This document shows, piece by piece, positions 13,430 through 64,000 of a stretch of DNA of 64,000 nucleotides. This DNA is from Amphiscolops sp. MND2022 (taxonomy: Eukaryota). The notes beneath the pieces were generated by a model, which saw nothing but the letters and a program-made list of their open reading frames with translations, was not told where the DNA came from and made no database searches. Both the position numbers and the translations under genes were made by a program. Numbering within the stretch: position 1 is the first letter of the stretch; each line of letters begins with the position of its first letter. The stretch spans positions 50,778,001 through 50,842,000 of the forward strand of contig OZ076421.1 in NCBI GenBank assembly GCA_964187785.1. The letters are read 5' to 3'.

Positions 13430-13431
13430 AA

Positions 13432-26669: not shown

Positions 26670-27264
26670 CAAGAAATAGCGCATGAAAAAGTTGTACAGG
26701 AAAGGATGTACAAGAGCTTTCAATATGTGGAACAAAAAGAAGAGAGAAGAGAATTTCGTGGTCGCACCAAATGTGCTGCTTAGACTTTGTGCAATGTTAT
26801 TTTGTAGATCTTTCAAGGTATACATGAGAAGTACGTAAGTCTTGAGCTAAGTCGTCGCCGAGTTAAGTCTTTTCCTTCAAGTTTCACTAGAACTACTCCA
26901 CTAAGAAACTAAGAGACAGAAGGACTGAGATCTCAGATTTTCTATCTTTCTCTTCTTAAGTGAGAAAGCTTCTAGAATCAAAGATTCGAGTTATTCTTCT
27001 GATGGGTTAGTTACAAAACTTACTTCTGAACAAAACTGGATTATTAAGGTTAGATATAATTCAAATCAGTCTAGGATGACAAAAGTTAGATTAGATCTAA
27101 GATATAATTCAAATCAGTCTAGGATGACAACAGTTAGATTAGATCTATAATGATTTAGTCACCAAACGTCAGCAATCTAATAATGTATTACCTTCTAAAT
27201 GAAGTGACATCTGTCAAGTTATTAGGTCAAAAGTTTAGATACATTTCAAGATCATGGCATCACA
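26670..27264 (-). repeat. LTR (26772-27264) with PBS (TGGTGCGACCACG) and ~100 bp of leader, same family as the element B LTR
   Basis: TG...CA termini; high similarity to 40370-40928; internal ~49-bp tandem duplication at ~27050-27150. Confidence 0.85.
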
Positions 27265-39330: not shown

Positions 39331-39953
39331 AACAAGAAAACTAGGATCGAACGATTTGGTCTAAAAATAAGGTGTATGTAGTGTTGTAGAATCTATGAAG
39401 CAGGGGTCTATGAGGAAGAACACAAAGAGGAATTATTATATTGAGTATCATAAGGTATTTAAATGTAAAATTGTTTTCGAATTTGGGTAAGGAAGGAATG
39501 ACTGTAAGTTTGTTCTAAAATTTGGGTATAAAAGGACTAAGAATTGATCAAAAATTAGTGCACGACCTGCAATGAATGCAAAGAAAAACCATAGAAGTAT
39601 GATGGAATTTACAAGATCATCAGCTGAAGGCATTCGTTAAAATAGGTTTATAATGTATTACAAAGTTTTTCGTTCAATACTTTGTAATAGAATATGTAAT
39701 ATATTTTGTATGATATATTTTTGAATGTTCTATACTATGTAGTATAAGAATATTCAACAATATGTAATACAATATATCTGTAATATAGTTTTGTACATTA
39801 TATTTGTAAGATAGTTTTGTATAAGAAATTTGTAATATAGTAATGTGTTTATATCCGTGGCAGTATTTAAAGATTTCAAGAAAGGTGTGCTAACTCAAAA
39901 GGCGTTGATCCAAAATTAGACCAGCAGGAATTGTCGGTAGCACTTTTGAAAAA

Positions 39954-40257
39954 CCAACACGTAGCGCACGTCTGCGGTTGGTACGTTAAGGAAACCAACA
40001 CGAATCACTTTTGCAGTGGTTGGAACGGAAAAAGATTTTTACCAACACGTATCACTATTGTAGTGGTTGGAAGGAAGGTTATTTGATTAACACGTATCAC
40101 ATTTATTGTGGTTGGAACGGAAAGAAATGACCAACACGTATCACTTTTGAAAAAGGGTTGGAACGTTGAAGAAAGTGACTGACAGGAAATACGTGTGTTA
40201 CGTAGTCAGAACTATACCAGCACGAATGAATTTTGAAGGAAAATTGGTTGGAACCTT
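39954..40257 (-). repeat. Leader array of six stem-loop repeats (element B)
   Basis: CCAACACG...GTTGG units corresponding in order to those at 12974-13280. Confidence 0.8.
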
Positions 40258-40368
40258 GAGCTAAAACCTGTAGAAAAGACTGTGTAACGAATCTTAAGCT
40301 AAAACCTGTAGGAGAGACTGTTTAACGAACCTTAAGCTAAAACCTGTAGGAGAGACTGTGTAACGAAC
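40258..40368. repeat. ~36-bp tandem repeat x3 in the leader (AAGCTAAAACCTGTAGGAGAGACTGTGTAACGAA)
   Basis: Direct reading. Confidence 0.85.
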
Positions 40369-40471
40369 AAAGAAATAGCGCATGAAAAGTTGTACAAGAA
40401 AGTATGTACAAGAGGTATGAATTTGTGGAACAAAAAGAAGAGAGAGAAGAGAATTTCTTGGTTGCACCAAA

Positions 40472-40928
40472 TGTGCTGCTTAGACTTTGTGCAAGGTTAT
40501 TTTGTAGATTTTTCAAGGTATACATAAGAAGTTCTTAAGTCCTAAGCTAAGCCGTCGTCGAGTTAACACTTTTCTTTCAAGTTTCATTAGAACTACTCCA
40601 CTAAGAAACTAAGAGACAGAAAGACTGAGATCTTTCTCTTCTTAAATGAGAAGGCTTCTAGAATCAAAGAATCGATCTATACTTCTGATGGGTTAGTTAC
40701 AATAATAGTCAACTTCCTTGTTTATTAAGATTAGATATAATTCAAATCAGTCTACGATGACAACAGTAAGATTAGATCTATACTGATTTAGTCACCAAAT
40801 GTCAGCATTCTAATACTGAAGTAATAACTTCTAAATGAAGAAGTGACATATGTCAAGTTATTAGGTCAAGAGTTTAGATACCTTTCAAGATTATGAAAAT
40901 ACTTAAGGACATGCATCGTGGCATCACA
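40472..40928 (-). repeat. 5' LTR of element B (457 bp), PBS TGGTGCAACCAAG at 40457-40469
   Basis: Minus-strand TGTGATGCC start and GCACA end, followed by a TGG motif. Confidence 0.85.
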
Positions 40929-42098
40929 GAGGTACATTGGCATATCCAAGAAGCTTTCAGAAGTGTTTAAATTTTTGCAAAAGGATGGGACCTATATTGA
41001 GAGGTGTACCTATCGAGATTTTAATAAAAGTTTCGAAGATTGGATTACTTACACTTAGCTTTTTGTATCGAAATGAGGTGCTGCATTCAGCTACATATTT
41101 TTCTATATAACGCGAACTGAAACTAGCTCCTTATTGATCAATGAGAGCAACAGTACATCAAAGCGTTGAAGGTTCGTTCATGATGACTTCTCAATTTCAG
41201 AGTACCGAAAAAGCAAAAGGGTGACCAGAAAAACAAATTGTTTCTGATTTAAAGTCAAAAAATCAGTTACATTGAGCTTCTTACGATGGAACTTTTTTTA
41301 ATCAAAATTTGATGAGATCGAGTGCAGCTGAGTTTGCTGGAAAGGTTTGGAACGTTTAAAATCTTTGAGTCTCGTTTTTTTGCGGTTCCTTCTAGACAAT
41401 TTCCTCCCGAATATATTTTCACAGATGCGTGTGCAAAAGGGTATCATGGGTTCATCTGATATTTAGTTCATGAATTTTGCCATGAAAGTGAATGCCATAA
41501 ACAAAAAAAAACTTCTGTCGTTGTTTGTAACGAGTTTAATAAATGATCAATGTATGAAGCAAATGTTTCCATAATTGGTCATTATTATAGGGATATATTA
41601 TATTATATTATATATAGGGATATTATTATATTTTATCGTCGTTAAACTCCTTAGAAGAACCTTCAAATTAGAATTTTTTACAAATTTTGTTATGGTTATA
41701 ACATAACAACAAAATTATGTTATGATAAAGCAACATAATATGGCAACACAAGACACCCGCTAAGCACCGGCATAGTTTCCTCCCTTTTCGCCTTCACCCA
41801 CTGAGTCATAGCTATTTTGGGATGGGGAATAGGAGCTAACTAATAAGATTCACTTTAGATCTTATTCCCGTCCTGAAATTTTAGATCTTATTCCCTTTAG
41901 ATCTTATTCCTATTTTTACTTTAGATATTATTGCCAGTCTGAAGGCTGAGTAGGGATACTCTCAGTATGAAGGCTGAGTAGGGAGACTGTGCAAGTGGAG
42001 TAATAAAAGTGGAATTTTGGCAGAATTAGTAAAAAAAACGCCACACAGATGATGATTTTCCTCCCCCATTTTAAAATGAGGGGTCGGAAAATAATAAT

Positions 42099-42491
42099 AT
42101 GAAACATGTTATTGCATTCAAGTGTGAGGCAAAGTTTTGTCCCATACAAGTTGGTGGCAAATTTCAGCGTTCGGAATCCATACCTGTTCCGAATCAAGAG
42201 GGTTCGGAAAACTTGGCTGACCAAATGAGACCACAGGCTGCAATTAATGAACCTGGTCCGCCAATGAATGACCTCCCTAGTGAACTGGATCGGCCATATC
42301 TGGCTGGTCAAGGTGGTCAAACACAAACTGCATCTAATTCAGGCCTGGCTGCTGGAATGGGACCACAAGTTGCATCTAATGAGCCGAATTGGGCAATGAA
42401 TGCCTTCCCCGATCAACTGCAGTTGACAAACATGGTCAACCCAATGTCACAACAGTCTACAGTACCTCAGACTGCTGAATCTCAGGGATGA
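42099..42491 (+). CDS. Gln/Pro/Gly/Met-rich ORF or exon, paralogue of 45063-45587
   Basis: NEPGPPMNDLPSELDRPYLAGQGGQTQT and ASNEPNWAMNAFPDQLQLTNMVNPM shared with the second copy; 3' flank also conserved. Confidence 0.4.
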   Translation: MKHVIAFKCEAKFCPIQVGGKFQRSESIPVPNQEGSENLADQMRPQAAINEPGPPMNDLPSELDRPYLAGQGGQTQTASNSGLAAGMGPQVASNEPNWAMNAFPDQLQLTNMVNPMSQQSTVPQTAESQG

Positions 42492-45062: not shown

Positions 45063-45587
45063 ATGGGCATATTTCCTCCAAACCAGCAGCATCAGCAAAT
45101 GGGACCACAGGCTGCATCTAATGAAACTATTCCGCCAATGAATGACTTCCCTAGTGAATTGGATCCGCCATATGTGGCTGGTCAAGGTGGTCAAACACAG
45201 ACACCACCTAGATCAGGCCAGGCTGTTGGAATGAGAGCACAAGTTGCATCTAATGAACCTGGTCCGTCAATGAATTACCTCCCTAGTGAACTGGATCCGC
45301 CATATGTGGCTGGTCAAGGTGGTCAAACACAGACACCACCTAGATCAGGCCAGGCTGTTGGAATGAGAGCACAAGTTGCATCTAATGAACCTGGTCCGTC
45401 AATGAATTACCTCCCTAGTGAACTGGATCCGCCATATGTGGCTGGTCAAGGTGGTCAAACACAGACACCACCTAGATCAGGCCTGGCTGTTGGAATGAGA
45501 CAACAAGTTGCATCTAATGAGCCGAATTGGGCAATGAATGCCTTCCCCGATCGACTGCAGTTGACAAACATGGTCAACCCAATGTGA
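45063..45587 (+). CDS. 174-aa ORF built from 120-bp (40-aa) tandem repeats
   Basis: Three copies of ASNEPGPSMNYLPSELDPPYVAGQGGQTQTPPRSGQAVGMRAQV-like units, frame preserved. Confidence 0.45.
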   Translation: MGIFPPNQQHQQMGPQAASNETIPPMNDFPSELDPPYVAGQGGQTQTPPRSGQAVGMRAQVASNEPGPSMNYLPSELDPPYVAGQGGQTQTPPRSGQAVGMRAQVASNEPGPSMNYLPSELDPPYVAGQGGQTQTPPRSGLAVGMRQQVASNEPNWAMNAFPDRLQLTNMVNPM

Positions 45588-47330: not shown

Positions 47331-47820
47331 GAGTAGTATTCAGCTTTATATCTAAATTTTCCAGATCAGACATCAACATTGTATACACATTGTCCACATC
47401 AGACATCACGTCCGAATGTCTCGACCGCTTTTCTCTGGCTTTCGGGTTCTAGTAGAAGGCATTGTAGAAAGTGGTTGTTCCAATGTTCAATTATCAAACT
47501 CGTGGTACTAAACATATGCGTGTAAACTACGTTAAAAACAGCTCGTAGGGTTACTTACCGGAATTAAAACCCAAAATTACGTCGCCATTACGTTAAAAAA
47601 GTGTCAATAGCATCAAAGTACTGGCGGTATAGGTGGCCAGAATGTCTGAAGTCTTTATAAGTACGTATTACATATAAATGTGATTGGCAGCAACACAACA
47701 TGTTATTCTATTTGATGGCAAATATTGATTGCTGTAATAGCACAGTGACGGACGCTGAGTTCGTCTGGCTAGAATAAATTTCCAGTGAATTTCTAATTGT
47801 TGTGATATAGCCTAATTGTT

Positions 47821-48714
47821 GTGATAAACTTATTAAATAGTTTCCGGTTATATGAAAACTTGATGATGGTTCTCACAAGAAGTGCACTGGTCTCCTCTTC
47901 CAACAGTGATGGGACAACTCAACTGGGTGGAACATGTGCTGTGGATCATGGACTCTGTTCTGTATGTCATGGATCGCAACAAACGAGGGACTGGATTCAA
48001 TGTGAAAAATGTTCTCACTGGCTTCACTCTCAGTGTCTGAAAATACCAAAGGAAGTATTCGTTTACTTATCCTCGTCTGAAAATTTCTCCTATATTTGTG
48101 ATTCGTGTGTTAGCAAAAAATCAGCCTTTGATGACTCAACTGAAATTGCAAAACTAGATGAACTTAAAAAAGATATCAAAACAATCGTCGAAAACGTCAT
48201 TGAAGAAAAGTTGCCGAACAAAATTCCTATATCTACGAAAGAACCTAAAACACGAGATCGGCATGTACCTGAAACGACCATAACTGAGGACAATAATTAT
48301 CATTACAAAATCAGAATATCCGGAATTGAGGAAATGGATTCCAAGTTTTTCATAGATAGACAACTGCATGATAAGTCCGAAGTCGAAAAAGTTCTTGATG
48401 ATTTAAATTGCTCCGGAAATGTTATTGAAACTCAACGACTTGGGAAATTTGATAAAAATAGAACTCGGAACCTACTTGTAACATTTGGATCTGTATGGGA
48501 TGCTCGCAAAGTCATCGCAAAGGCCATCAAGAAAAAATATTTCCTAAACAAAAGGGTTTTGATCACCCCTGAACTGTCCCCAAAGGACCTTTTACTGGAA
48601 AGACAACTGTTAGCCAAACGTTACGAATTGATCAGGAGTGGCATAGATCGTAGCCGTTTGAAAATAAAAAAATTGAGACTCTACAAAGACAACGAACTGG
48701 TAGAGGTGAACTGA
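47821..48714 (+). CDS. LINE ORF1 with PHD finger, intact
   Basis: CSVC...WIQCEKCSHWLHSQC...YICDSC (C4HC3); IRISGIEE, RLGKFDKNRTRNLLVTF, ITPEL typical of LINE ORF1 C-termini. Confidence 0.85.
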   Translation: MINLLNSFRLYENLMMVLTRSALVSSSNSDGTTQLGGTCAVDHGLCSVCHGSQQTRDWIQCEKCSHWLHSQCLKIPKEVFVYLSSSENFSYICDSCVSKKSAFDDSTEIAKLDELKKDIKTIVENVIEEKLPNKIPISTKEPKTRDRHVPETTITEDNNYHYKIRISGIEEMDSKFFIDRQLHDKSEVEKVLDDLNCSGNVIETQRLGKFDKNRTRNLLVTFGSVWDARKVIAKAIKKKYFLNKRVLITPELSPKDLLLERQLLAKRYELIRSGIDRSRLKIKKLRLYKDNELVEVN

Positions 48715-48730
48715 CTAGAAAATTACGAAA

Positions 48731-51541
48731 ATGTCCACCGCATCTTTCTTTTAAACTGCCGCAGTATCTTATCCCCAGAAAAAAGACTTCACTTATCGTG
48801 TATTCTCCAATCAAGATTACCTGATATTCTCTGCCTTACTGAAACCTGGTGGGATGAATCTTCTTCAGACAATACTTTTCTCACAGCTGCCTACTCAGTC
48901 ATAGCAAAAGCCGTGCGTGAAACAAATCAGCATGGAGGTGTGGCTATTATGGCAAAAAAAGAACTGGTTGCATCAAAAATAGAATGCTTGGACAATACAT
49001 TTTGTTGTGGTATATCAATTGATACCTATGGAATTATTGTTTTTACAATCCTCCAAACCCTAGTGAGTATCGTGTTCCTGATGATGTAATCTCAAATTGC
49101 TTATACTCGGCCTATAATGTTCTCAGTAACGCTTTCATTGATAAAGTATTAATTATGGGTGATTTCAACTTACCAAACGAGGATTGGGCACAGTTCCCAG
49201 CGATCAGTACAGAATATTTCTGTGAAACCGAAAAATTCCTTACTGCTAAAAATTTCACCCAGCTTGTAAAGGAACCAACCCACAAAGATGGTAATGTCCT
49301 TGACCTGGTATTTACAAACTATGACGAACCTGAAGTTCTTGATATTGAAAAACATCGAACTTTTTCTGATCATTTCAGCATATCTGTGGGTATCCCTAAA
49401 AACTCTGAAACAATGTACACACAAACTGACCTCAAACAATACAGTCTCGCAGCAACCGACTTAAATTCGATTGACCTAACACTAGCTCAGTCACTATTCT
49501 CGTTCGAACTAGACCAAAATTCTGTCGACTTCATTGCGGACTGGCTGATTTCATTTCAAAACATTCTCAAACAGTTCTTAGTTAGCAAACGGCAAAAGCG
49601 AAAAATGTTGCCGGATTACTTGAGCTCTCACAGTTTTCATCTCTTCAACTGCCTCCAACAGAATTAAAGCAACTATATGGCCTCAACTTGAAAAATTATA
49701 TGAAATACAATACTATCTGTAAAGAACTTGAAAAGTCTATTGAGTTGGACACAAATGTATTTCTCGACAAGTTTTGTGCCGTAAATAGTAATGTAAATGA
49801 TTGTTACAAACTGATTAGAAAACTCAAAATTTCCGACATTCCGAAGACAATGATTGATCCCAAAAAGAAAAAAATTACTGGAAGTTCCAAAATTGCAAAC
49901 GCCTTCAATCAGTATTTTGGATCAGTATTCAATGCTTCTGACGATACATTCACCGATTTTACTGATAATGTACTGAATGATGTAGAACTATCTACCGAAA
50001 TCGCAAAAGAGGCTCTAGATTTATCAACTGATGGCATTGGCCCTGATGGTATTCATGGTCAATTTTTACGGAAGTGTTCAAACAGTCTCTCAATACGTTT
50101 CTACAACCTATCAAAGGTTATTGTAGAAACTGGAGTGTATCCTACATCCTGGAAAAAAACCATTATCACACCCATATTCAAAGAGGGATTGAAAATTGAG
50201 ATAGCCAACTACCGTCCAATTGCTTCTTTGAGCAAACTTTCACTCGCATTTGAAAGAATTCTTTTCAGGAGCATTTCCAAGCATATACAGGACAAACTAT
50301 CCTCCCATCAATTTGGTTTTCGAAAATCCCGATCATGTATCATCCTGTTACTGTCGTTCTTTGATAAAACCTTTGAGTGGATCGATTCCAAAGAAAAAGC
50401 CTTTGCAATCTATTTGGATTATTCTAAAGCATTTGATCGAGTCCCTCATTCTATACTACTGAAAAAACTACGATCTCTGGGTCTGGGTGGATCTCTACTC
50501 AAACTAATAGCTTCATATTTGCAAAACCTAGTGCAACAAGTTAAAACTGAAAACTGTCAATAAGAAGAGTGTCCTATTACAAGTGGTGTGCCCCAAGGCT
50601 CAGTGGTCGGCCCGCTTTTCTTCATTGCGTTTATAAATGACCTGCCCGAGAATTGTGAGTGTGTTCCATTTCTATTCGCTGACGACCTTAAACTGGCAAG
50701 TTCATGTCTGTTCGAGCTTCAGAACGATTTGTTATCACTAATGAAGTGGAGTGAAGAAAAGAAACTCGACTTTAACTTGCAGAAGACGAAATTATTACAC
50801 TTCAGTAAATCAAAGATGCAATGTGATAACCCTGTCCTACACCTGGGAGAAAATGATATCTATCCTACAACAAAGAGTATTCGTGATCTTGGTGTCTGGG
50901 TCTCTCCAAATTTGACATGGACCGATCACATAAATATTAAAATAGCAAATTGTTATAAACGCCTAGCCATGTTACGTCGGAACCTTCCTAAAATGCTTAA
51001 CCCTGACATGAAATTTAAATTGTACCGCATCTACATTTTACCCGCACTTGCTTATGCTTCAGGTGTTTGGCATCCGAACAGAGGAGGCTTAAAAAAAATA
51101 CAAAGGCTGCAGCGGATCTGTTTCAAGTGGGTTGACTATAGGAGCTCATTTCATCAACTTCTTGACAAATATCACCATTTACCGATCTCTTTACATCTTC
51201 AAATGCAGGATCTGCTACTGATCAACCAGCTCACAATGGGCCTTTATGACTTCACCATATGGGATTATGTGTGTTCAAATCAACACAACAATAATTATGA
51301 GCTCAGAAGTAACACCAAAAATATTTTCATGTCTGACTACACACGTTTAAAGTGTACACGGGAATTTTTCTTCAATCGAATCATCAAACTTAGCAATTTT
51401 GTACAACAAGAATACAACATTAAACTGCCAAACCACCCTGCCGCATTTGAATCCGATCTAAAGAGAATTTACTGGAATCACTACAAAACTAAATATGAAG
51501 ATAGTGGCTGTAAAATGTTCCTGAAATGTAGCTGTTGTTAA
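48731..51541 (+). pseudogene. LINE ORF2 (APE endonuclease + RT) with a few frameshifts/stops
   Basis: LNCRSI, LTETW, HGGVAI, MGDFN, LDLVF, SDH; NYRPIASL, QFGFR, YLDYSKAFDRVPH, GVPQGSVVGP, FADDLKL; stops at ~49667 and 50561. Confidence 0.92.
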
Positions 51542-51773: not shown

Positions 51774-52765
51774 GTTATGCCGTTAGGCAAAACGCCAGTT
51801 TACGCAGAACGCCAGTTTTTTCAGGTGGTCCTATTGGCAAAATGCCTTTTCATCTCAAAGTTGCCTGAAAATGTCAAAAATGAGTTCCTCTCATGATTTT
51901 ACAATGAATGCATGTTCCCAATACTCGTTTTACAGTTTTATTTCGATTTTTTCGAAAACTTTGAAAAAATGCTCCAAACTGGCGGTTTGCTGAGTTACAC
52001 CTGGCGTTTTGCGTTCACAGGCAGGCGAAGCGCCAGTCGAGCGGACAACCAGTTGTAGAGAGGTTGTTTCAGTTGAAGCAACGGAAATTGCTTGAGAATG
52101 CCACGAAGTTTGCCCAAATTGCGTTTAAAGTTCATAATGCGTTTCCTGACGCGTAGTAGTCGAGTGGAAACGTTTATTTCGTTTCCACTTGTCTGCAGAC
52201 CACGGGTGTATGCCATTTCCCCCTTGTATAATGACATACAAGGGTTTGATTGACCACTGCGACAAACTGGAAATGTTCATTTTGGAAACCAAGAAGCTAA
52301 ACAAGGACGAAGAAGCCTGAAACTATCCAATTTGCAGACCAAATTATTTGATGAAAAAGAGAGTTGATAACTACGTGATTTGAAAAACACCCTCCCGCAA
52401 ATAGGGGTTTTAGAACATATATATGTATGATGACCTAAACTGCACTAGATTTGGTGCTTTGGAATTGCAATCATCTAATCAATCAAGTATGTGGACGTCA
52501 ATTGATACCAAGAAATTAATCAAACGATGACCGGAGATGGAAATATTCCACTTTTCCCTAGTTACGCATTTTTCTTCTGACTAGGAATCTTGTTCTGAAA
52601 TTTTTACAGAATGTGAGTGATATTTATTTCAGAAGCATGATGAATGAGTCAATTTCGCATTTGAACCCAGAATCCCGAAGATTTTTCGTGATACATCTCT
52701 GAAGTTTCTACTTTACTTGTCTTAGCACGGAGAGTTTCCTCGAATTCTATTGGGTCATATTTTCT

Positions 52766-53385
52766 CACTTTTCCCCAACCTTGTACTTTCCCTTGGTACT
52801 GAAACAGAGATAGGAGCAGCAGCTCTCTCGAGGTTCAGAAGTTCCGTGGGCACTTTTCCCCAACCTTGTCCTCACGGGAGCTTTGATTGACCAACATAAC
52901 CTGTACGATCACAATTACAAGCTGAAGATTAGCAAGGATTGTATAACAAGTTTGACCATATATCGAGACAACGTCACGTGTAGCTGCTTAGTCTTGAACG
53001 ATTCCCTTGGTACTGAAACAGAGATAGGAGCAGCAGCTCTCTCGAGGTTCAGAAGTTCCGTGGGCACTTTTCCCCAACCTTGTCCTCACGGGAGCTTTGA
53101 TTGACCAACATAACCTGTACGATCACAATTACAAGCTGAAGATTAGCAAGGATTGTATAACAAGTTTGACCATATATCGAGACAACGTCACGTGTAGCTG
53201 CTTAGTCTTGAACGATTCCCTTGGTACTGAAACAGAGATAGGAGCAGCAGCTCTCTCGAGGTTCAGAAGTTCCGTGGCACTTTCCCCCAACCTTGTCCTC
53301 ACAGGAGCGTGTCCCTTTGAACGATTCCCTTGGTACTGAAACTGAGATAGGAGCAGCTCTCTCGAGGTTCAGAAGTTCCGTGGGC
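52766..53385 (+). repeat. Tandem repeat upstream of the SET-recombinase gene: 214-bp period x2 plus a 109-bp unit, sharing a ~60-bp core
   Basis: Core TTCCCTTGGTACTGAAAC(A/T)GAGATAGGAGCAGC(AGC)TCTCTCGAGGTTCAGAAGTTCCGTGG at 52788, 53002, 53216 and 53325. Confidence 0.95.
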
Positions 53386-53502
53386 AGACTTGGCCACAAC
53401 CGTTTAGCCGTTTTGCCGTTTACACCTGACTGACACTCACTGCCGATTCAAACTCCTCAAATTCTTCATTCAAATTCCTTTGTAATTGTTCTGTCATTCA
53501 AC

Positions 53503-56500
53503 ATGTCCTCTCTGCGTCACAAAACCTGCCTTCGGCACCGATCGTGTGACTTGTTACCTAGAAACGAGCCATTTGACTTTCTGGAGTCAGACCCTCCCCA
53601 CTTTGAAATTAAACCAGTTTTAAAAGCTGGCTTTGGTTTATTTACCACGCGTTCTTTCCAGAAACACGAGTTTATAATCAATTATCGGGGAGATTTCATT
53701 GATCAGCAAAACTCAACGGACAATATTTACAGCATCGAGACTGGAGCTCCAGAACATGTTACTGTCGATGCTTCCAAGAGGACAGAATGTTTAGGGCGAT
53801 ATATTAATGATGTCGACCCCTTCCATGCTCAGAACTGCAGAACTGTGAAAATTTACAACAACGACAGAAGCCGCTGGACAATCGGAATTTTTGCCACAAA
53901 AAACATTTCTTCTGGAGAAGAACTACGGTACAGTTACGGTACAAAAGTTGCACCCTGGAGAGAAATGAAGTTCTGGAAGGCTGAAGTTCGTTCCAAAAAA
54001 AACCGTATCCGTAAACATCCCGTGCCTTGCACGCAAAACGACGTTGCAGTTGGTGCCTCCCGTAATCACAAAATAGCTGACAAATTTATGGAAGGTTGGT
54101 CTCCGGGATTCTCCCACCTACCGAAAAGGACTGCAGTCGACTCGGGAACAGTATTGCCAACAGAAACTTTGCAAACAGAAACTTTGCAAACAGAAACTTT
54201 GCCAGCAGAAACTTTGCAAACAGAAACTTTGCAAACAGAAACTTTGCAAACAGAAACTTTGGAAACAGAAACTTTGCCAGCAGAAACTTTGCAAACAGAA
54301 ACTTTGGAAACAGAAACTTTGCCAGCAGAAACTTTGCAAACAGAAACTTTGGAAACAGAAACTTTGCCAGCAGAAACTTTGCAAACAGAAACTTTGCCAG
54401 CAGAAACTTTGCCAGCAGAAACTTTGCCAGCAGAAACTTTGCAAACAGAAACTTTGCAAACAGAAACTTTGGAAACAGAAACTTTGCCAGCAGAAACTTT
54501 GCAAACAGAAACTTTGCAAACAGAAACTTTGCAAACAGAAACTTTGCAAACAGAAACTTTGCCAGCAGAAACTTTGCCAACAGAAAATTTGTACATATCT
54601 GGAATCGACTTGCCGCCAACTCAAACAACCCCACGCTTCTCTCAAATCGACTTGCCGCCAACTCAAACAACCCCATACTTCTCTGGAACTGAAATAGTAA
54701 TACAAACAACACCTCACATTTTTGAAGGGGCCGACACATCTCTGGTTTTTATGGACATTCCAACATCCATTCAAACACCCAACACCAACACCGACCGCGA
54801 AGATGATGCTGATGATGATCATGACCATGAAGAAGAAGAAGAAGAAGAAGAAGAAGAAATTGACTCCGAAATAGAATTTCAAACATTTGTTTCCAAGAAC
54901 AATAAGCCAAAGAGGCCTGCCGTAGAAACTTGCTTGCTGTGTGAAAAACAAGTTAAAAAAATGAGGGACCACCTCACAAACAAGCATTTGATTGGAACTA
55001 ATGATAAGTTGCGGAAATTTTTGTCAACATACTACAGTACGTTGCACACCCATCGTTGTTATCAGTGTTCTGACTGCTCCTTCCGTTTCGGGGATCGTGG
55101 CAAACATCCCAAAAATCATCCCATAGAACGAATCATGGACAGGGAAAATATGACGTTCTTCCCTCAAAGTATCAGCGTTGCAATTGATCAGATCCGCCAA
55201 CAACTTTTGCTACCATATAAAGAATTAGTTGAAACGTGGGTGAGACACGAGAAAGGGCTCTTTGAAGACGGCGATGTGTCAGGTACATGGAACGTGTCAT
55301 CTACTCAATTTTCGTTTTTATGTCGTGCAATTGATGCAACAAAAAATTTTACAGAACCCACAAATTTGGCTGTTTTTGTCAGGGAATATTTTCAACAACG
55401 CGTAATAACAAGATCAACAATGGTGAATAACCTAATACTTTTTGAAAAAATGGTGGATTACATTAAAGCGTACAAACGGCCCAGTTTTGCAGTAATAATG
55501 GAAAACGATTGGAAGAAAATAATCAAAGATGTTCGAAAGAAATACCAAAAAGGTGCACTCAAGGAGAAAAAGAGAACAAAACGAGGTCTTTTTGAAAGAG
55601 TTCCAGACATGGAAGGAGTTGCCTTCGTGGTAAATCGAATAGCCGAATTGTGTGAGGCGGATGTGAAAGAAGAGACCCTTAGTCTGGACGAACTCAAAGT
55701 ATTCAATTTTGTTACACTTTCTTCTACCATGAATGGCCGCGTTGGCCCCCTTATGGATTTAACTTGGGAGGACGTAAAGAAAATAAAACAAGATGGCAAA
55801 ATTACCTCCGATAAACATAAAACAGGACATTTCTATGATCATGAACTCAAAATTCGTCCTGAACAATTTCCTTGGTTGTACCGATTAAGAAAAGAGTTCG
55901 AGAAGAAGTACGGCTATCGTGGAAAGCTGGTGTTTGCAACCTCTCAAGATACCCGAGACCATTCAATGGCTGCAACAATCAGAAAAGTACTTGCCAATCA
56001 TTTCGAGGATCACATTTTAGAAAAAGATTACCATGGAACACCAATAAGAAAAATGTGGGACACCTACTTCCATTACAATGCCGACGAAATTCCAGCTGAA
56101 GCACGCGCTTTTCATTCAATACAGTCTGCGCACACAAAAGATACAGCTGATAAGAACTATATTGTGCCAAAAACAAGTGGTATTGATTTCTATCACGACA
56201 CCTTGAGAAAAAATGCAAAATCGAAAGCTGAAATTGTGGACAAATCTCCTTCCTCTACACTTCCCTCAACTTCAAAATTTTCTACACCACCAGTCAAATC
56301 GTCCCTTTTGACTCGAACGAAAACCCCCTCATCAGAAACAAAACCGTCAGTGAAGAAGTGTCTGAAGAGCACAGTTGGTTCAGAATCTTCGTACAACCCA
56401 AGTTCTTCGGAGAGCGAGTCTGAAAAACAACCGTCGTCCATCACGATCAGAAAATCAACTAAATATCTCAAAACATTGAATACCTGGAGAGACGAAAAAC

Positions 56501-56682
56501 CATCACCAGCTGTCCTGAAAGCTGTTGCCCTCTTCGAGAACATTGTGTGTCGAATGGGAAGAAAAGAAGTAGTGAAAACCATCGAAAAGGCCGAAATCAA
56601 ACTGACCCGTGAGGAGTTGTCCAGAGTTCTCAACAAAGTCAAATGGGCTGGTAACCAGCACTTACCCAAAACGGAGTTTTAA
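53503..56682 (+). CDS. Intact 1059-aa SET domain / pentapeptide repeat / zinc finger / tyrosine recombinase fusion protein
   Basis: SET: GFGLFTTRSF..FIINYRG, GRYIND, ELRYSYG, PWR. C2H2-like CLLC-x9-H-x4-H at 54931. Recombinase: NGRVGPLMDLTWEDV (R 55738), DKHKT (55810), TPIRK (R 56047), AHTKDTADKNY (H 56131, Y 56158). Confidence 0.88.
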   Translation: MSSLRHKTCLRHRSCDLLPRNEPFDFLESDPPHFEIKPVLKAGFGLFTTRSFQKHEFIINYRGDFIDQQNSTDNIYSIETGAPEHVTVDASKRTECLGRYINDVDPFHAQNCRTVKIYNNDRSRWTIGIFATKNISSGEELRYSYGTKVAPWREMKFWKAEVRSKKNRIRKHPVPCTQNDVAVGASRNHKIADKFMEGWSPGFSHLPKRTAVDSGTVLPTETLQTETLQTETLPAETLQTETLQTETLQTETLETETLPAETLQTETLETETLPAETLQTETLETETLPAETLQTETLPAETLPAETLPAETLQTETLQTETLETETLPAETLQTETLQTETLQTETLQTETLPAETLPTENLYISGIDLPPTQTTPRFSQIDLPPTQTTPYFSGTEIVIQTTPHIFEGADTSLVFMDIPTSIQTPNTNTDREDDADDDHDHEEEEEEEEEEIDSEIEFQTFVSKNNKPKRPAVETCLLCEKQVKKMRDHLTNKHLIGTNDKLRKFLSTYYSTLHTHRCYQCSDCSFRFGDRGKHPKNHPIERIMDRENMTFFPQSISVAIDQIRQQLLLPYKELVETWVRHEKGLFEDGDVSGTWNVSSTQFSFLCRAIDATKNFTEPTNLAVFVREYFQQRVITRSTMVNNLILFEKMVDYIKAYKRPSFAVIMENDWKKIIKDVRKKYQKGALKEKKRTKRGLFERVPDMEGVAFVVNRIAELCEADVKEETLSLDELKVFNFVTLSSTMNGRVGPLMDLTWEDVKKIKQDGKITSDKHKTGHFYDHELKIRPEQFPWLYRLRKEFEKKYGYRGKLVFATSQDTRDHSMAATIRKVLANHFEDHILEKDYHGTPIRKMWDTYFHYNADEIPAEARAFHSIQSAHTKDTADKNYIVPKTSGIDFYHDTLRKNAKSKAEIVDKSPSSTLPSTSKFSTPPVKSSLLTRTKTPSSETKPSVKKCLKSTVGSESSYNPSSSESESEKQPSSITIRKSTKYLKTLNTWRDEKPSPAVLKAVALFENIVCRMGRKEVVKTIEKAEIKLTREELSRVLNKVKWAGNQHLPKTEF
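54163..54582 (+). repeat. 15-bp coding tandem repeat x28 (ETLQT/ETLPA/ETLET)
   Basis: GAAACTTTG(CAAACA/CCAGCA/GAAACA) units counted from the translation. Confidence 0.97.
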
Positions 56683-56830
56683 CCAAGCAACTGATGTAAC
56701 CAAGAAACTGAACCACTGTAACCAAGCAACTGAACAACTGTAACCAAGCAACTGATGTAACCAAGAAACTGTACTACTGTAACCAAGCAACAAATTCAAA
56801 AAGGTCCCACTAAAGAACTTGTAACCAAGA
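56681..56830 (+). repeat. Seven AACCAAG-core short repeats (mostly 17-22 bp spacing) directly after the stop codon
   Basis: TGTAACCAAG(C/A)AACTG units. Confidence 0.85.
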
Positions 56831-57379
56831 TACCAACCAACTTCAATTTGGCAGCATGACCTCCTGTTGGCATGGGACCTGAGGGGTTTGGATGGAGGTG
56901 GCCCCTCACCAGGTTTGATGAATCAGACATTCACAGAATCAGCGCTTTGTCTTAGTGTTTTTACATTGTTTCGTTTTCGTTAGATATGTTGTGCTTTTTA
57001 GATCTTCGCTATAACTTGCCAAAATCCGCAAATCCATAAAATATGCACCTTTACGTCATTTAATATCGTGAAAAAATGCAAAGGGATGATCGCCAAAATG
57101 AACAACATCATAACATTTTTTATTAGAAACAAAGATAGTATTTTTTTGGAGAACTTTTGAGAACAGAGCATTTTTACCCTCTAATGTTGTTAACTTTGTT
57201 GGTGTTAAAGAGGGGAACCGACAGTTTCCGAATTTCTTGTAATGCTCGCAGACTACTTTATTACTCCCGGTGAACACTTCGGACGCAGTACGAGAGTGAA
57301 AATCATACAAACCATTCTTTTAATGAGAATTTTCGGTAGACCTGTTGCTATCGGGTAACATTTATTAATGAATAAAATT

Positions 57380-57432
57380 GTTAGCCTTGGGACACCTGCG
57401 TTATCATTTAGCAGATGTACCGCCCCAGTCAA
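57380..57432 (-). rRNA. ~53-nt fragment of 28S (LSU) rRNA, P-loop region; further copies at 58299-58345, 59179-59231, 60065-60117 and 61710-61762 (not a functional gene)
   Basis: Reverse complement TTGACTGGGGCGGTACATCTGCTAAATGATAACGCAGGTGTCCCAAGGC matches the conserved eukaryotic LSU motif TTTGACTGGGGCGGTACA...AACGCAGGTGTCC(T/C)AAGG as I recall it. Confidence 0.85.
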
Positions 57433-58914
57433 TGAACTAAATCCAATCGTGATTGAACGATTCCCTTGGTACTGAAACTGAGATAGGAGCAGCTCTCTCG
57501 AGGTTCAGAAGTTCCGTGGGCAGACTTGGCCACAACCGTTTAGCCGTTTTGCCGTTTACACCTGACTGACACTCACTGCCGATTCAAACTCCTCAAATTC
57601 TTCATTCAAATTCCTTTGTAATTGTTCTGTCATTCAACATGTCCTCTCTGCGTCCTCTTTTGCGATCAGCAAAACTCAACGGACAATATTTACAGCATCG
57701 AGACTGGAGCTCCAGAACATGTTACTGTCGATGCTTCCAAGAGGACAGAATGTTTAGGACGATATATTAATGATGTCGACCCCTTCATAAATACAGCTTA
57801 CGTTTATCCCAATAAATTTGCATGGCCGCTTGGATGGGCAACATTCGGTTTTCCGTTGGCATGTCCCCAAAACTGTTTCACCAATAAGAAAAATGTGGGA
57901 CACTTCCATTATAATGCCGACGAAATTCCAGCTGAAGCACTTTGAAACTGGCGTTTTGCTGAGTTACAACTGGCGTTTAGCGTTCACAGGCAGGTGAAGC
58001 GCTAGCAACAAAAACACATACACACTTTCAACATTGTCAATGAACTAAATCCAATCGTGATTCATTCTGTTTAGTCGTAACTCTTTGAACACGTTTTTGT
58101 CTTTCAAGATACCAACCAACTTCAATTTGGCTGCTTGTCCTCCTGTTGGCATGGGACCTGAGGGGTTTGGATGGAGGTGGCCCCTCACCAGATTTGATGA
58201 ATCAGACATTCACAGAATCAGCAACCAAGCAACTGATGTAACCAAGAAACTGAACCACTGTAACCGAGCAACAAATTCAAAAAGGTCCCACTAAAGAACT
58301 TGGGACACCTGCGTTATCATTTAGCAGATGTACCGCCCCAGTCAATGAACTAAATCCAATCGTGATTGAACGATTCCCTTGGTACTGAAACTGAGATAGG
58401 AGCAGCTCTCTCGAGGTTCAGAAGTTCCGTGGGCAGACTTGGCCACAACCGTTTAGCCGTTTTGCCGTTTACACCTGACTGACACTCACTGCCGATTCAA
58501 ACTCCTCAAATTCTTCATTCAAATTCCTTTGTAATTGTTCTGTCATTCAACATGTCCTCTCTGCGTCCTCTTTTGCGATCAGCAAAACTCAACGGACAAT
58601 ATTTACAGCATCGAGACTGGAGCTCCAGAACATGTTACTGTCGATGCTTCCAAGAGGACAGAATGTTTAGGACGATATATTAATGATGTCGACCCCTTCA
58701 TAAATACAGCTTACGTTTATCCCAATAAATTTGCATGGCCGCTTGGATGGGCAACATTCGGTTTTCCGTTGGCATGTCCCCAAAACTGTTTCACCAATAA
58801 GAAAAATGTGGGACACTTCCATTATAATGCCGACGAAATTCCAGCTGAAGCACTTTGAAACTGGCGTTTTGCTGAGTTACAACTGGCGTTTAGCGTTCAC
58901 AGGCAGGTGAAGCG

Positions 58915-59109
58915 CTAGCAACAAAAACACATACACACTTTCAACAATGTCAATGAACTAAATTTATTAATGAAGAGATCTTTTTCATCATGTACAAATT
59001 TGCAGTTGTTGCCGTACCGACAGTTTCCGAATTTCTTGTAATGCTCGCAGACTACTTTATTACTCCCGGTGAACACTTCGGACGCAGTACGAGAGTGAAA
59101 ATCATACAA
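58915..59109 (-). pseudogene. CCCH zinc-finger coding fragment (also 59801-59995 and 61446-61640; broken copy at 57220-57310)
   Basis: CEHYKKFGNCRYGNNCKFVH = C-x8-C-x5-C-x3-H. Confidence 0.75.
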
Positions 59110-62100
59110 ACCATTCTTTTAATGAGAATTTTCGGTAGACCTGTTGCTATCGGGTAACATTTATTAATGAATAAAATTGTTAGCCTTGGGACACCTGCGT
59201 TATCATTTAGCAGATGTACCGCCCCAGTCAATGAACTAATTCCAATCGTGATTGAACGATTCCCTTGGTACTGAAACTGAGATAGGAGCAGCTCTCTCGA
59301 GGTTCAGAAGTTCCGTGGGCAGACTTGGCCACAACCGTTTAGCCGTTTTGCCGTTTACACCTGACTGACACTCACTGCCGATTCAAACTCCTCAAATTCT
59401 TCATTCAAATTCCTTTGTAATTGTTCTGTCATTCAACATGTCCTCTCTGCGTCCTCTTTTGCGATCAGCAAAACTCAACGGACAATATTTACAGCATCGA
59501 GACTGGAGCTCCAGAACATGTTACTGTCGATGCTTCCAAGAGGACAGAATGTTTAGGACGATATATTAATGATGTCGACCCCTTCATAAATACAGCTTAC
59601 GTTTATCCCAATAAATTTGCATGGCCGCTTGGATGGGCAACATTCGGTTTTCCGTTGGCATGTCCCCAAAACTGTTTCACCAATAAGAAAAATGTGGGAC
59701 ACTTCCATTATAATGCCGACGAAATTCCAGCTGAAGCACTTTGAAACTGGCGTTTTGCTGAGTTACAACTGGCGTTTAGCGTTCACAGGCAGGTGAAGCG
59801 CTAGCAACAAAAACACATACACACTTTCAACAATGTCAATGAACTAAATTTATTAATGAAGAGATCTTTTTCATCATGTACAAATTTGCAGTTGTTGCCG
59901 TACCGACAGTTTCCGAATTTCTTGTAATGCTCGCAGACTACTTTATTACTCCCGGTGAACACTTCGGACGCAGTACGAGAGTGAAAATCATACAAACCAT
60001 TCTTTTAATGAGAATTTTCGGAAGACCTGTTGCTATCGGGTAACATTTATTAATGAATAAAATTGTTAGCCTTGGGACACCTGCGTTATCATTTAGCAGA
60101 TGTACCGCCCCAGTCAATGAACTAATTCCAATCGTGATTCATTCTGTTTAGTCGTAACTCTTTGAACACGTTTTTGTCTTTCAAGAACACAACAGTCTCA
60201 TAAATGATTTTATCGTAATCTTTCACAACTTGTGACTCTTTTGAACTCAGCACCTTGACATGGACTGTTCTCTCGGAAAAATGTTTCTGGAAGAAAGCGC
60301 TAGCAGAGTCGCGCCAAATCATGGTGACGTCACGAACTTTGGGGGTGTTTGATGAGAATAAAAAAGCCTTCTCGTCTTCGCCTGGGGAGAGCGAACATGG
60401 TATTGCGTAGGCGGGGTGGTTCAAAAAATGGGGTAGGAGCTCGGAGCAGTAATGTTGGTAGCTTTGTTGGTATTAAAGAGGGGATTGTCGTCACATAATT
60501 TATTAATGAATAAAATTTATATGATATAAAGATATAAAATTAAGTTGGTTATTATGGTCCATAGAAGATCTTCACGAACAAATGCACCATGTGTTGTTTG
60601 GGATTCTGTGTTTTTTATAGTATCCCCCCCAGCACGGAGAGTTTCCTCTAAGGAGAGAAGTGCAATTACCCTTGCAATATCTGGCCCACATACTTAACGT
60701 ACTTTCCACTTTCTGAGTCGAAAAACTTTGATCAATTCGCGTTCAGGTCCATTGAAAAAGGCATTGCTTAATCGCCACTTCTTCACTTGGACAATTAATC
60801 CAAGATCAGGCAGTCTCACAAGGTATTCTGCGTCAGTCATATTCGTCATAACGAGGGCACTTTTCCCCAACCTTGTCCTCACAGGAGCGTGTCCCTTTGA
60901 ACGATTCCCTTGGTACTGAAACTGAGATAGGAGCAGCTCTCTCGAGGTTCAGAAGTTCCGTGGGCAGACTTGGCCACAACCGTTTAGCCGTTTTGCCGTT
61001 TACACCTGACTGACACTCACTGCCGATTCAAACTCCTCAAATTCTTCATTCAAATTCCTTTGTAATTGTTCTGTCATTCAACATGTCCTCTCTGCGTCCT
61101 CTTTTGCGATCAGCAAAACTCAACGGACAATATTTACAGCATCGAGACTGGAGCTCCAGAACATGTTACTGTCGATGCTTCCAAGAGGACAGAATGTTTA
61201 GGACGATATATTAATGATGTCGACCCCTTCATAAATACAGCTTACGTTTATCCCAATAAATTTGCATGGCCGCTTGGATGGGCAACATTCGGTTTTCCGT
61301 TGGCATGTCCCCAAAACTGTTTCACCAATAAGAAAAATGTGGGACACTTCCATTATAATGCCGACGAAATTCCAGCTGAAGCACTTTGAAACTGGCGTTT
61401 TGCTGAGTTACAACTGGCGTTTAGCGTTCACAGGCAGGTGAAGCGCTAGCAACAAAAACACATACACACTTTCAACAATGTCAATGAACTAAATTTATTA
61501 ATGAAGAGATCTTTTTCATCATGTACAAATTTGCAGTTGTTGCCGTACCGACAGTTTCCGAATTTCTTGTAATGCTCGCAGACTACTTTATTACTCCCGG
61601 TGAACACTTCGGACGCAGTACGAGAGTGAAAATCATACAAACCATTCTTTTAATGAGAATTTTCGGAAGACCTGTTGCTATCGGGTAACATTTATTAATG
61701 AATAAAATTGTTAGCCTTGGGACACCTGCGTTATCATTTAGCAGATGTACCGCCCCAGTCAATGAACTAATTCCAATCGTGATTCATTCTGTTTAGTCGT
61801 AACTCTTTGAACACGTTTTTGTCTTTCAAGAACACAACAGTCTCATAAATGATTTTATCGTAATCTTTCACAACTTGTGACTCTTTTGAACTCAGCACCT
61901 TGACATGGACTGTTCTCTCGGAAAAATGTTTCTGGAAGAAAGCGCTAGCAGAGTCCAGCCAAATCATGGTGACGTCACGAACTTTGGGGGTGTTTGATGA
62001 GAATAAAAAAGCCTTCTCGTCTTCGCCTGGGGAGAGCGAACATGGTATTGCGTAGGCGGGGTGGTTCAAAAAATGGGGTAGGAGCTCGGAGCAGAAATGT

Positions 62101-64000
62101 TGGTAACTTTGTTGGTGTTTAAGAGGGGATTGTCTTCACATAATTTATTAATGAATAAAATTTATATGATATAAAGATATAAAATTAAGTTGGTTATTAT
62201 GGTCCATAGAAAATCTTCACGAACAAATGCACCATGTGTTGTTTGGGATTCTGTGTTTTTTATAGTATCCCCCCCCAGCACGGAGAGTTTCCTCTAAGGA
62301 GAGAAGTGCAATTACCCTTGCAATGTCTGGCCCACATACTTAACGTACTTTCCACTTTCTGAGTCGAAAAACTTTGATCAATTCGCGTTCAGGTCGAAGC
62401 ACGTTCATCGCTGCCCAAGTTATGGAGACATTTTTTAAGAATGTAATGTGTATGTGCCCGTTTCAATGTGAATTGCAGTTTTGATCTGAAATACTGTTTT
62501 CGAAAGTATTTAATACTATGCAATAATTTACATGATCCTTTACAACAAAACTTTTTCCGCTTAAAAAATCCTTTTTAAAAATAAAAAGCACAACATTGGG
62601 TACTCACTGTTTTTTATTTATGTGCGTAGCCTATTTTTTGAATAGTAGGTGCTGAGCATTTCATGTTCATATATTTTGAACTTTGCCTTTTGAGGGTGCT
62701 TGATTTTGGAGTTTTGGTGCTTCGATAATCAATGTTTTTTGTAATTCTGTGCCCCCATATTGTTCCTATTTGTTGGAGTTTCAAGTCCAGGAATGGACGG
62801 GTCTCTATCTGTTCTTGACACAGCTGCGTATGACGCCTTGAAGGATTATGTATCGCTACGGTATGAAAAACTACCTCAGGAACAGGAAAAGAAAGCAAAT
62901 TTTTATCGATAATTCCCAACTGATCGCGAGATGGATCAAGACGACGAGTCTGCCTCCCCTGTTAAGAAAAAATCAAGGACTGATGGTACGAGAATATTGC
63001 CTCGAGAGCTGCCGGATTTTGCAACATACAATCATTATTAAAATCACCAGTCAATTAAACCGGAGATACGAATTTTATCCCCATACGTATTCGCTGCTTT
63101 GGTCGAAGTCATTTATGACGAAGGCTCCAGCGATATAAATTGCCTCTTCGCATCACCTCTTTCACGTTAGAAAAAGTTTACATTTACATTACATTCGCTC
63201 ACTTACATTTCTAATCAATTTTAATTTTGTCGCTACCACTTTGTGTTTTGTAATTCGACATTTTCATTGATTTTTTTTGAAAATTTTCGATTTAATACAG
63301 AGCGCCCCAAAGTAACCAAAACAACTAATTGTTGTAGCGTGTAAATTTTGCAGTGGAAGCTACAGAAAGAAATGGACTCCAAGCCTCACCTTCAAACTGT
63401 TTCGAGCCCACTCGTTGCCAAGAAGTGTTGGTTGATCGTCAAAGCCAGCGTGTGTAAATTGGGGTAAAGGAACCCACCGCAAGTGGGGAATTGGGCCACC
63501 AAAGAAGTCCCGAAGAATTTCCTTGACCAGGAGGAAGACACACGGCGGAGGACATGCAGCCGCCACCTGATTAGGTAACATGTGTATTTGATTTTGTTCA
63601 GTGTGGTTTTTGGATGTGTGGCATTTTTCTAACTAAAGATAACATTGAAACAATCAAGCGCCTGATTGATCATATAGTTTTGTGCGATGGTGAAAGGCTT
63701 GGGAAGGAATCATTATTTCGAAATAATTTTTCCAATTAACTTCTGTAATAATTTCTATTCAATTTCATCAATCAACAATGTTTTATTCCAGATCTTTCTA
63801 CCAGTTCTTCTATCGCTCTTCCTTGGTTCGTCACTCCTTCTCCAGCTCCAACAGTCATCAGCTCAACATCTTTCCATCATGATATCCTCAATCATCCTTC
63901 ATCCTCCATTACCATCATCAGTCTCTCTGCAGCTGCTGAAACAAAAAAGCCAAATGTTAGTTCCACTTCGGAAAATGCTCAAGTTTTGCTCTGCACTTTT

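Follow-up and report, generated by a model that had tools for sequence, protein, structure and literature searches.

Gene capture by transposons is already known. In Drosophila, telomeric long interspersed nuclear elements (LINEs) carry fragments of nxf2, piwi, and aub of 140 to 235 bp, which were acquired in at least nine events, have been amplified up to eight times, and are accompanied by antisense PIWI-interacting RNAs (piRNAs); antisilencing by capture has been proposed for TART-nxf2 and for piwi/aub in flies, according to the consulted parts of both reports (PMC7785250, PMC13534243). For Pack-TIR and Pack-MULE elements, the consulted part of PMC8277862 describes capture by template switching (the FoSTeST model), with a median microhomology of 2 bp and a median piece length of 224 bp. 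Here, we analyzed a 64,000-bp stretch of contig OZ076421.1 from Amphiscolops sp. MND2022 (GCA_964187785.1, forward-strand positions 50,778,001 to 50,842,000; hereafter, the window, whose own coordinates are used throughout). It contains a gene that fuses an N-terminal SET domain to a tyrosine recombinase (YR), here called SET-YR, and beside it a tandem array built from pieces of the same locus and of host genes. In this instance, antisense pieces of Tudor and CCCH zinc-finger genes seem to be moving along with the SET-YR element.

With a probability of about 60%, we read the array as template-switch cargo captured in a SET-YR DNA transposon that resembles Cryptons and was recently active; unequal exchange would have expanded the array, which is most likely a hitch-hiking passenger. 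Its anatomy is clear (Table 1). Self-BLAST recovered four 598-bp modules, starting at 57453, 58366, 59252, and 60897 (spacings of 913, 886, and 1645 bp), that differ at 1 of 598 positions across the four copies and match their donors with E values of 1e-17 to 1e-101, far beyond chance. An initial annotation of this DNA had reported the same four copies and periods and had divided the module into an upstream core, a SET piece, about 90 bp without a donor, a YR piece, and a pre-gene piece. All of these parts were recovered, the SET piece ending at 53823 rather than at 53826. The core at 57453-57654 is identical to 53317-53518 at 202 of 202 positions in all four units and reaches back to 53276 in the fourth, and the pre-gene piece (57945-58005) matches 51976-52036 at 92%, with 9 further bp from 51958-51966. 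It had also been claimed that more than 90% of the open reading frame (ORF) was deleted while about 200 upstream bp were always kept, and the count bears this out, with 205 of 3180 ORF bases retained (94% lost). The units descend from the SET-YR element, always retain its start codon with the 200 bp preceding it, and have been tandemly amplified. Compared with 52037-57216, their self pieces share 1427 same-strand 14-mers and 0 opposite-strand ones. A donor type was assignable for about 76% of 57217-62395, which leaves about 24% with no donor. The extent first proposed, 57220-62396, proved too narrow for the patchwork as a whole, since the core motif occurs eight times in the locus, four of them 5' of the gene at 52788-53325.

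The foreign pieces, as identified by sequence matches, are the end of an extended-Tudor gene, a CCCH finger, and 28S rRNA, lying antisense within the array. The rRNA and CCCH blocks had already been recognized; the former matches Rfam RF02543 (E values of 1.9e-6 and 5.9e-8; 37 bits, under the gathering score of 50), and the latter matches Pfam zf-CCCH (E value of 3.8e-9) and CCCH structures in the PDB. Of two fragments initially described as coding-like, the one at 60122-60424 turned out to be the end of the extended-Tudor gene, and the one at 60694-60855 found no match in Pfam, PDB, or Atlas. The Tudor piece is 57% identical to protein P0050 over 103 amino acids (E value of 3.3e-27), and its stop codon falls near the end of P0050, after which it runs on into a probable 3' untranslated region (UTR). 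P0050 itself matches Pfam TUDOR (E value of 2e-5) and, weakly, Tudor-SN (best E value of 0.008), TDRD1, and Tudor in the PDB; its predicted fold has a predicted local distance difference test score (pLDDT) of 47, and Foldseek on it was uninformative. There are three full CCCH copies and one partial copy, and two long Tudor copies besides short ones. Each of the three foreign pieces identified runs antisense to the element, an outcome with a chance of 1/8 for one given strand. A search of 50% representatives with the Tudor piece gave three matches, among which P0050 is a 57% relative and not the donor; among proteins of similar length, the search for a Tudor donor found only the window's own ORF. 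A search with an 87-amino-acid CCCH-side frame against longer proteins matched none of 15 candidates. We found no Tudor capture by a transposon in open-licence PMC papers and bioRxiv.

Some candidate assignments were discarded along the way. Among the matches of the Tudor piece, P0051 was judged spurious; it is a repetitive squirrel protein. The frame at 60697-60858 looked Tudor-like by eye only, with no support from Pfam, PDB, or Atlas. The 28S piece was rejected as an integration target, since it is internal and both of its flanks are non-rDNA.

The joins between pieces indicate how the composite unit may have been built. Seven simple joins have both of their donors in the window; their microhomologies of 0, 2, 2, 5, 0, 4, and 3 bp add up to 16, compared with 5.2 on average under the null (p = 0.005). 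The insert at the core-SET join is a near-duplicate of the preceding bases. Duplications border both inserts: 13 bp around the CCCH piece, with an empty site at 60498-60517, and 15 bp of Tudor sequence around the CCCH plus rRNA cassette, with an empty site in unit 1. No sequence is common to all joins, and no fixed recombinase site was seen. The combination of microhomology and short duplications suggests serial template switching. Microhomology-mediated break-induced replication and polymerase-theta repair are the background to this interpretation, together with the Pack-TIR captures described in the consulted part of PMC8277862. Some self pieces differ from the neighboring donor by 3 to 8%, with the changes clustered, so these pieces may have come from sister copies or through an error-prone polymerase. 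The post-stop repeats, which had been placed at 58110-58300 in reversed order, occupy 58105-58302; their order is indeed swapped, while their strand is unchanged, so that they are not inverted. In the proposed first step, a composite unit of about 1.65 kb would have been assembled by serial switching at short microhomologies, a route for which the product is seen and the enzyme would be conjectural. Sense pieces of the element or its sister copies would have been joined to antisense extended-Tudor, CCCH-finger, and 28S pieces of the host, and the polymerase would at times have re-entered slightly upstream, leaving the 13- and 15-bp duplications. The sequence at 60498-60517 is an AT-rich near-palindrome with AATAAA on both strands that is reused at three different joins.

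The relationships among units point to ordinary expansion of that composite. Unit 2 corresponds to the 1645-bp unit with 759 bp deleted; the opening 657 bp of unit 1 correspond to it with 278 bp deleted (2 differences). Single-nucleotide polymorphisms (SNPs) and junction types shift stepwise from neighbor to neighbor in a non-tree-like manner, and one SNP spans two junction types, in keeping with unequal exchange. Units 3 and 4 are identical for 1058 bp and then accumulate 10 differences in the following 440 bp (Fisher p = 4.5e-6, with the boundary chosen afterwards), a pattern that may reflect either recent homogenization of the core or consensus collapse. In the second proposed step, duplication, microhomology deletion, and unequal exchange would turn the long unit into four and a half units, and these processes suffice for the array as it stands. 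Derivation of every block from one contiguous ancestral sequence by unequal crossover, which the initial annotation had set against its own model, agrees with the amplification but not with the ancestral unit, which is a true multi-donor patchwork.

The carrier belongs to a family of its own. At E ≤ 1, Pfam returned only SET (E value of 1.7e-11) and a weak HMG_box on the SET-YR protein, and DUF3504 gave no match at that threshold. The predicted core model (pLDDT of 80) resembles XerH in a VIA comparison (Z of 11.9; root mean square deviation of 4.4 over 272 residues). With the same model, Foldseek gave a best E value of 0.017 in the PDB, where nearly all listed rows are YRs, and of 1e-4 in the viral library, for nudivirus VLF-1. 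R769, K796, R872, H900, and Y909 (P0001 numbering) are invariant in all eight aligned proteins, and the H-x-x-R motif has T or N in place of its His. The modeled protein has the YR fold and catalytic residues expected of a Crypton, and the YR looks catalytically intact, as predicted from its residues. The closest Atlas clusters are animal proteins (0.96 to 0.98), DUF3435 appearing solely as a neighbor at 0.90. We found 10 clusters of the family, all from ENA, at 38 to 100% identity. The window's subfamily has seven other proteins on eight contigs, at 1 to 4 substitutions from the window's protein and none identical to it, and a different subfamily has one identical protein on nine contigs. Such dispersed near-identical copies are those expected of a Crypton, with the qualification that the contigs may be haplotype duplicates; the family thus appears young, multicopy, and recently active. 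N643 is private to the window's copy, Y being present in all four members that cover this position. Apart from SET-YR and alternative frames that overlap it, no long ORF lies between 51774 and 62396. There is no reverse transcriptase inside the element, the nearby LINE at 47.8 to 51.5 kb standing beyond an assembly gap. No description of the family was found in open-licence PMC papers and bioRxiv (Repbase Reports and most subscription journals lay outside this search), and it is apparently undescribed.

Some features of the protein family deserve mention in their own right. SET enzymes usually carry Asn-His at a motif that reads Asn-Asp in all SET-bearing family members (P0002-P0048; 53629-53940 in the window), and the SET domain is kept down to 38% core identity. 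Between SET and YR lies a coding tandem of 29 copies of a 15-bp repeat (54154-54591), whose copy number differs among near-identical elements. Each subfamily has its own unrelated acidic repeat at this position.

A candidate recombination site lies 1.3 kb 5' of the SET-YR start, at 52163-52189. It is the sole palindrome of 10+7+10 geometry in the 64 kb, and 1 of 100 shuffles of 51774-57216 gives one. Its geometry is lox/dif-like and fits approximately the arms of 11 to 13 bp and spacer of 6 to 8 bp given for YR sites in the consulted part of PMC3212892; it is possibly the recombination site of the element. It occurs in none of the array units. Within 51774-52036, inverted arms are found at 51787-51815 and 51976-52022. 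Cryptons would have direct repeats of 4 to 6 bp at their termini; searches for terminal direct repeats and element ends found 6- to 7-bp matches only, such as chance could produce, and no long inverted repeat was found within 56600-64000 or within 51774-53600, two regions that were scanned separately. Beside the gene, the tandem at 52788-53324 is a patchwork too, made of the core motif and a filler with an open 41-codon frame.

Table 1. Features of the SET-YR locus and its array (window coordinates; -, minus strand;., no strand assigned)
Feature	Coordinates	Strand	Description
Inverted-repeat segment	51774..52036	.	MITE-like (miniature inverted-repeat transposable element) or left end of the element; donor type of pre-gene piece; adjoins 184-N gap
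Candidate YR recombination site	52163..52189	.	Perfect 10-bp inverted repeat, 7-bp spacer; 15-bp arms at 87%; function suggested by geometry only
Upstream tandem	52788..53324	+	214-bp unit, 2.4 copies, of upstream core and filler; filler without Pfam match
Upstream core	53317..53518	+	Leader and first 16 coding bases; heads every unit; putative promoter
SET-YR ORF	53503..56682	+	Intact, intronless, 1059 amino acids; SET, 15-bp repeat linker, Zn-finger-like motifs (by eye), tyrosine recombinase, conserved C-terminal helical region
Post-stop 22-bp repeats and next block	56680..56943	+	Donor type of 58105-58302
Block without donor	56944..57216	.	No Pfam match; last 35 bp recur at 60450-60484 and 62095-62129
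Partial first unit	57217..57452	.	Part of CCCH piece, AT-rich 20-mer, 28S piece, Tudor 3' piece
28S rRNA fragment, ~53 bp	57380..57432 (also 58299-58345, 59179-59231, 60065-60117, 61710-61762)	-	Model positions from 2621; five copies
Unit 1, 913 bp	57453..58365	+	Core module, contiguous Tudor end, post-stop blocks swapped, 28S piece
SET piece	57664..57786 (also 58577, 59463, 61108)	+	Equals 53701-53823, 1 difference in 123 bp; 9-bp insert before it
92-bp block, all four units	57787..57878	.	No match elsewhere in window; no Pfam match in 5 frames tested
YR piece, 62 bp, around second catalytic Arg	57879..57940 (also 58792, 59678, 61323)	+	Equals 56039-56104; 1 substitution, 4-bp deletion
Post-stop blocks	58105..58302	+	56826-56943 then 56742-56821 (or 56681-); swapped order, same strand; 7 substitutions in 198 bp
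Unit 2, 886 bp	58366..59251	+	Long unit minus 759 bp, joined at 2-bp microhomology; 1 difference in 886 bp
CCCH zinc-finger gene piece, 184 bp	58975..59158 (also 59861-60044, 61506-61689; part at 57217-57359)	-	Complete finger; flanked by 13-bp direct duplication
Unit 3, 1645 bp	59252..60896	+	Long unit; every block save post-stop pieces
Extended-Tudor C-terminal half, stop codon, 3' UTR start, 337 bp	60113..60449 (also 61758-62094; shorter at 58006-58109 and in every unit)	-	Protein match to P0050
Block without family match	60485..60854	.	AT-rich 20-mer, 18-bp copy of 52724-52741, 54-amino-acid minus-strand open frame at 60697-60858
Unit 4, truncated long unit	60897..62395	+	10 differences from unit 3, all within last 440 bp

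Contig distributions bear on whether the array travels with the element. The Tudor ORF variants of units 3 and 4 (P0049 and P0052) are each found on four ENA contigs, the longest of 457,440 bp, and a split SET-YR of a different allele (P0014/P0015) lies on a contig also of 457,440 bp. The right-flank ORF forms a single-member cluster and is found on one contig, 390,497 bp long. Because the Tudor ORF occurs on several contigs and the flank ORF on one, the array probably travels with the element; the presence of element and array together at several loci is the simplest reading of these sequences. In the third proposed step, the YR would transpose the element as a whole rather than the units, and the array would now move with it.

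Several observations weigh against this overall interpretation. Co-mobility depends only on contig counts and on one size match between contigs, which may be haplotypes or separate assemblies. P0049 and P0052 span no junction and could derive from native Tudor copies, and 9 of 10 exact ORF look-ups were empty, including all three array ORFs (51 to 54 amino acids) and all six left-side ORFs. The window's own SET-YR is not among the seven cluster members. The placement of the array inside the element is indirect, the ends of the latter not having been found, and the promoter role of the core is putative. Intact Tudor and CCCH donor genes were not found in the protein searches (the nearest Tudor relative is 57% identical). 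Finally, 3 of the 10 scored joins were left out of the microhomology test (one with an insert, one with an 11-mer micro-template, and one with a donor side without a match), and donors taken within the array may bias the score.

How the array arose and grew could be explained otherwise. For the assembly step alone, the template could have been RNA: a reverse transcriptase or polymerase theta extending the plus strand would have jumped onto abundant germline RNAs (28S, the 3' end of a Tudor mRNA, and a CCCH mRNA), leaving them antisense. We consider this possible, if not the probable route. It would account for the shared polarity of the identified foreign pieces, of which one is rRNA and one a coding end with 3' UTR; the 13- to 15-bp duplications resemble target duplications; and LINE and BEL reverse transcriptase remains are present in the window. 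Yet no insert has a poly(A)/poly(T) tract, the noncoding pre-gene piece needs a DNA source or an unusual transcript, and a spliced junction is not demonstrable, the genomic relative P0050 also being uninterrupted across the stretch. For the amplification, the initial annotation had proposed defective mini-genomes, integrated head-to-tail as circles by the YR or copied by rolling circle. Defective-interfering and petite-type reiterated genomes likewise keep a cis-acting 5' region, lose coding sequence, and are arranged head-to-tail. Retention of the 202-bp 5' region in all four units despite the loss of 94% of the ORF, and a YR that looks intact, speak for this model. A concatemer of this kind would consist of identical units with one fixed junction, whereas the array sequence has three unit lengths and differing breakpoints that nested deletions account for. 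Since the joins share no crossover sequence and the sole YR-site-like palindrome lies outside the units, YR integration or rolling-circle copying of units is very unlikely. An assembly or amplification artefact is also very unlikely. The units are near-identical, a 184-N gap sits 5.4 kb to the left of the array, the clustering of differences between units 3 and 4 could stem from consensus collapse, and N643 is private where the covering members have Y. Against an artefact stand the ordered SNP gradients between units and the recurrence of both unit-specific Tudor variants on four ENA contigs, from a record set with SET-YR alleles distinct from that of the window. The unit copy number could still be wrong. 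Element and array together at several loci would also argue against a one-off misassembly. The initial annotation was right about the anatomy, its mechanism found no support, and it missed the antisense capture of Tudor and CCCH sequences that seem to move with the element.

What the array does is a separate question. Because the element's 5' region heads the units and the array contains, at 57371, the first AATAAA that follows the SET-YR stop, a plus-strand RNA antisense to the host pieces is plausible, and in the fourth proposed step, every unit, headed by this region, would yield such chimeric RNA. If the array is a passenger, its only possible effect would be through this RNA. The predicted folding of unit 3 is no better than that of eight rough shuffles, so no long hairpin RNA is expected. 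Starting from the same origin, selection could instead have kept and amplified the array because RNA from the 5' copies becomes piRNAs or small interfering RNAs (siRNAs) antisense to host Tudor (piRNA-pathway) and CCCH genes, easing silencing of the element. This counter-defence, a reading by analogy, is doubtful. Both identified protein-gene captures come from RNA-control families, all three foreign pieces are antisense, the captured pieces are amplified and each follows a copy of the element's 5' region, at 184 and 337 bp they come close to the 140 to 235 bp of the fly captures in the consulted part of PMC13534243, and the element also encodes a SET domain. However, three of three pieces on one given strand is a 1/8 event, and RNA-templated capture would yield the same without selection; the Tudor and CCCH families are large, and the PDB matches of P0050 are weak (Tudor-SN at best); and the rRNA piece and the sequence without a donor play no role in the model. 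Unlikely too, and likewise drawn from analogy, is a two-part version in which SET would act on chromatin while a mobile, self-promoted cassette copied from host RNAs would supply antisense small RNAs against Tudor piRNA-pathway and CCCH RNA-control genes, with the sense self pieces as decoys. Conversely, the initial annotation had suggested a host small-RNA locus sampling both strands of the element and able to silence it. Such a trap would suit a transposon-dense region with AATAAA on both strands, and its sense self pieces would yield antisense RNA if read from the minus strand, but that would require a promoter, and none was seen. In a piRNA cluster, element pieces would be antisense or on both strands; in this sequence, all self pieces lie on one strand, which argues against a two-strand silencing trap, and the array appears to occur with the element on several contigs. 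We therefore regard a trap as improbable and retain the passenger reading.

The surrounding window is transposon-dense DNA, with BEL/Pao remains at 0.2 to 4.3 kb. The eukaryotic 28S piece and the Atlas neighbors of the SET-YR protein point to an animal host. A nearly whole LINE remnant at 47806-51541 retains a PHD-bearing ORF1, an endonuclease, and a reverse transcriptase, with one frameshift and one stop; decayed, it ends just short of the 184-N gap that separates it from the SET-YR locus. At 4000-20000 and 26000-42000, the GC skew is strong over long stretches (up to ±0.46), which match each other as decayed repeats and contain broken ORFs without a Pfam match; the former region holds an inverted pair (4460-6760 and 15292-17891; 73 to 83%). 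At 22185-23363 lies a 392-amino-acid intronless ORF with poly-Q, for which no Pfam family was convincing and whose exact sequence is absent from the protein collection. A 132-bp coding tandem (45063-45587; 3.2 copies) is Gln/Pro-rich and has a related copy 3 kb away, at 42099-42491. In the right flank, 62745-63167 resembles, by eye only, a decayed integrase-type gene with two stops; Pfam gave no match. Pfam matched none of 62 of the 70 stop-free frames from blocks without a donor and flanks at E ≤ 0.05, the other eight, short right-flank frames, being left out. Rfam gave no match at the gathering score across the 64 kb, and matches to BaMV and a long noncoding RNA were discarded as below threshold. 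A sigma-70 promoter scan found none, with a model unsuited to animal DNA.

If the array moves with its element, it would be a capture cassette with several donors, borne by a YR DNA transposon and young enough for every join to be read, and the choice between DNA and RNA templates would be directly testable against the donor genes. If its RNA targets a host Tudor gene, antisilencing by gene capture would not be peculiar to fly telomeric retroelements, and a true counter-defence would extend capture-based antisilencing from those LINEs to DNA transposons. If it is a neutral passenger, it would be a neat but modest case of repair scars expanded by unequal exchange. In any case, the SET-YR carrier family is worth describing.

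As far as the consulted parts of the literature allow comparison, the array resembles the fly telomeric LINEs in that short host fragments of an RNA-silencing-type family are amplified within an element, with antisense RNA possible in principle. Amplification of a fragment within its element appears from the sequence to apply here, and a piRNA-pathway source may apply to the Tudor piece, which P0050 places in the extended-Tudor family. Unlike the fly elements, the carrier is a YR DNA element rather than a LINE, and Tudor, CCCH, and rRNA pieces are interleaved with self pieces behind 5' copies. With Pack-TIR and Pack-MULE elements (PMC8277862, in part), the array shares a median breakpoint microhomology of 2 bp, short pieces, host fragments joined at microhomology, and later amplification by transposition. 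It differs in having no terminal inverted repeats or DDE transposase, its enzyme being a YR, and in combining several donors and self pieces per unit, tandemly expanded beside an intact gene. Its units recall defective-interfering and petite-type genomes in their retained 5' region, lost coding sequence, and head-to-tail order; in contrast to these, they are unequal, chromosomal, and hold host pieces. Starships and YR-bearing endogenous nimaviruses are also YR elements with cargo, and some nimaviruses insert into 28S rDNA, according to the consulted parts of PMC13465315 and PMC10871703, whereas the present element spans about 10 kb, bears broken scraps rather than functional cargo or viral genes, and has its 53-bp 28S piece internally rather than as a flank. 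Like Cryptons (PMC3212892, PMC13465315, both in part), the element has a single YR gene, no reverse transcriptase, multiple copies, and a fused accessory domain. It departs from them in its N-terminal SET, the T or N in place of the H-x-x-R His, its cargo array, ends that were not found, and the lack of a DUF3504 match. CryptonV, which is mentioned in PMC8869645 and PMC5753468, would be recognized by its YR clade and its targeting of microsatellites as given in Repbase. With DUF3504 missing, the element is not a CryptonA; by the broad definition in the consulted part of PMC13465315, it works as a Crypton does.

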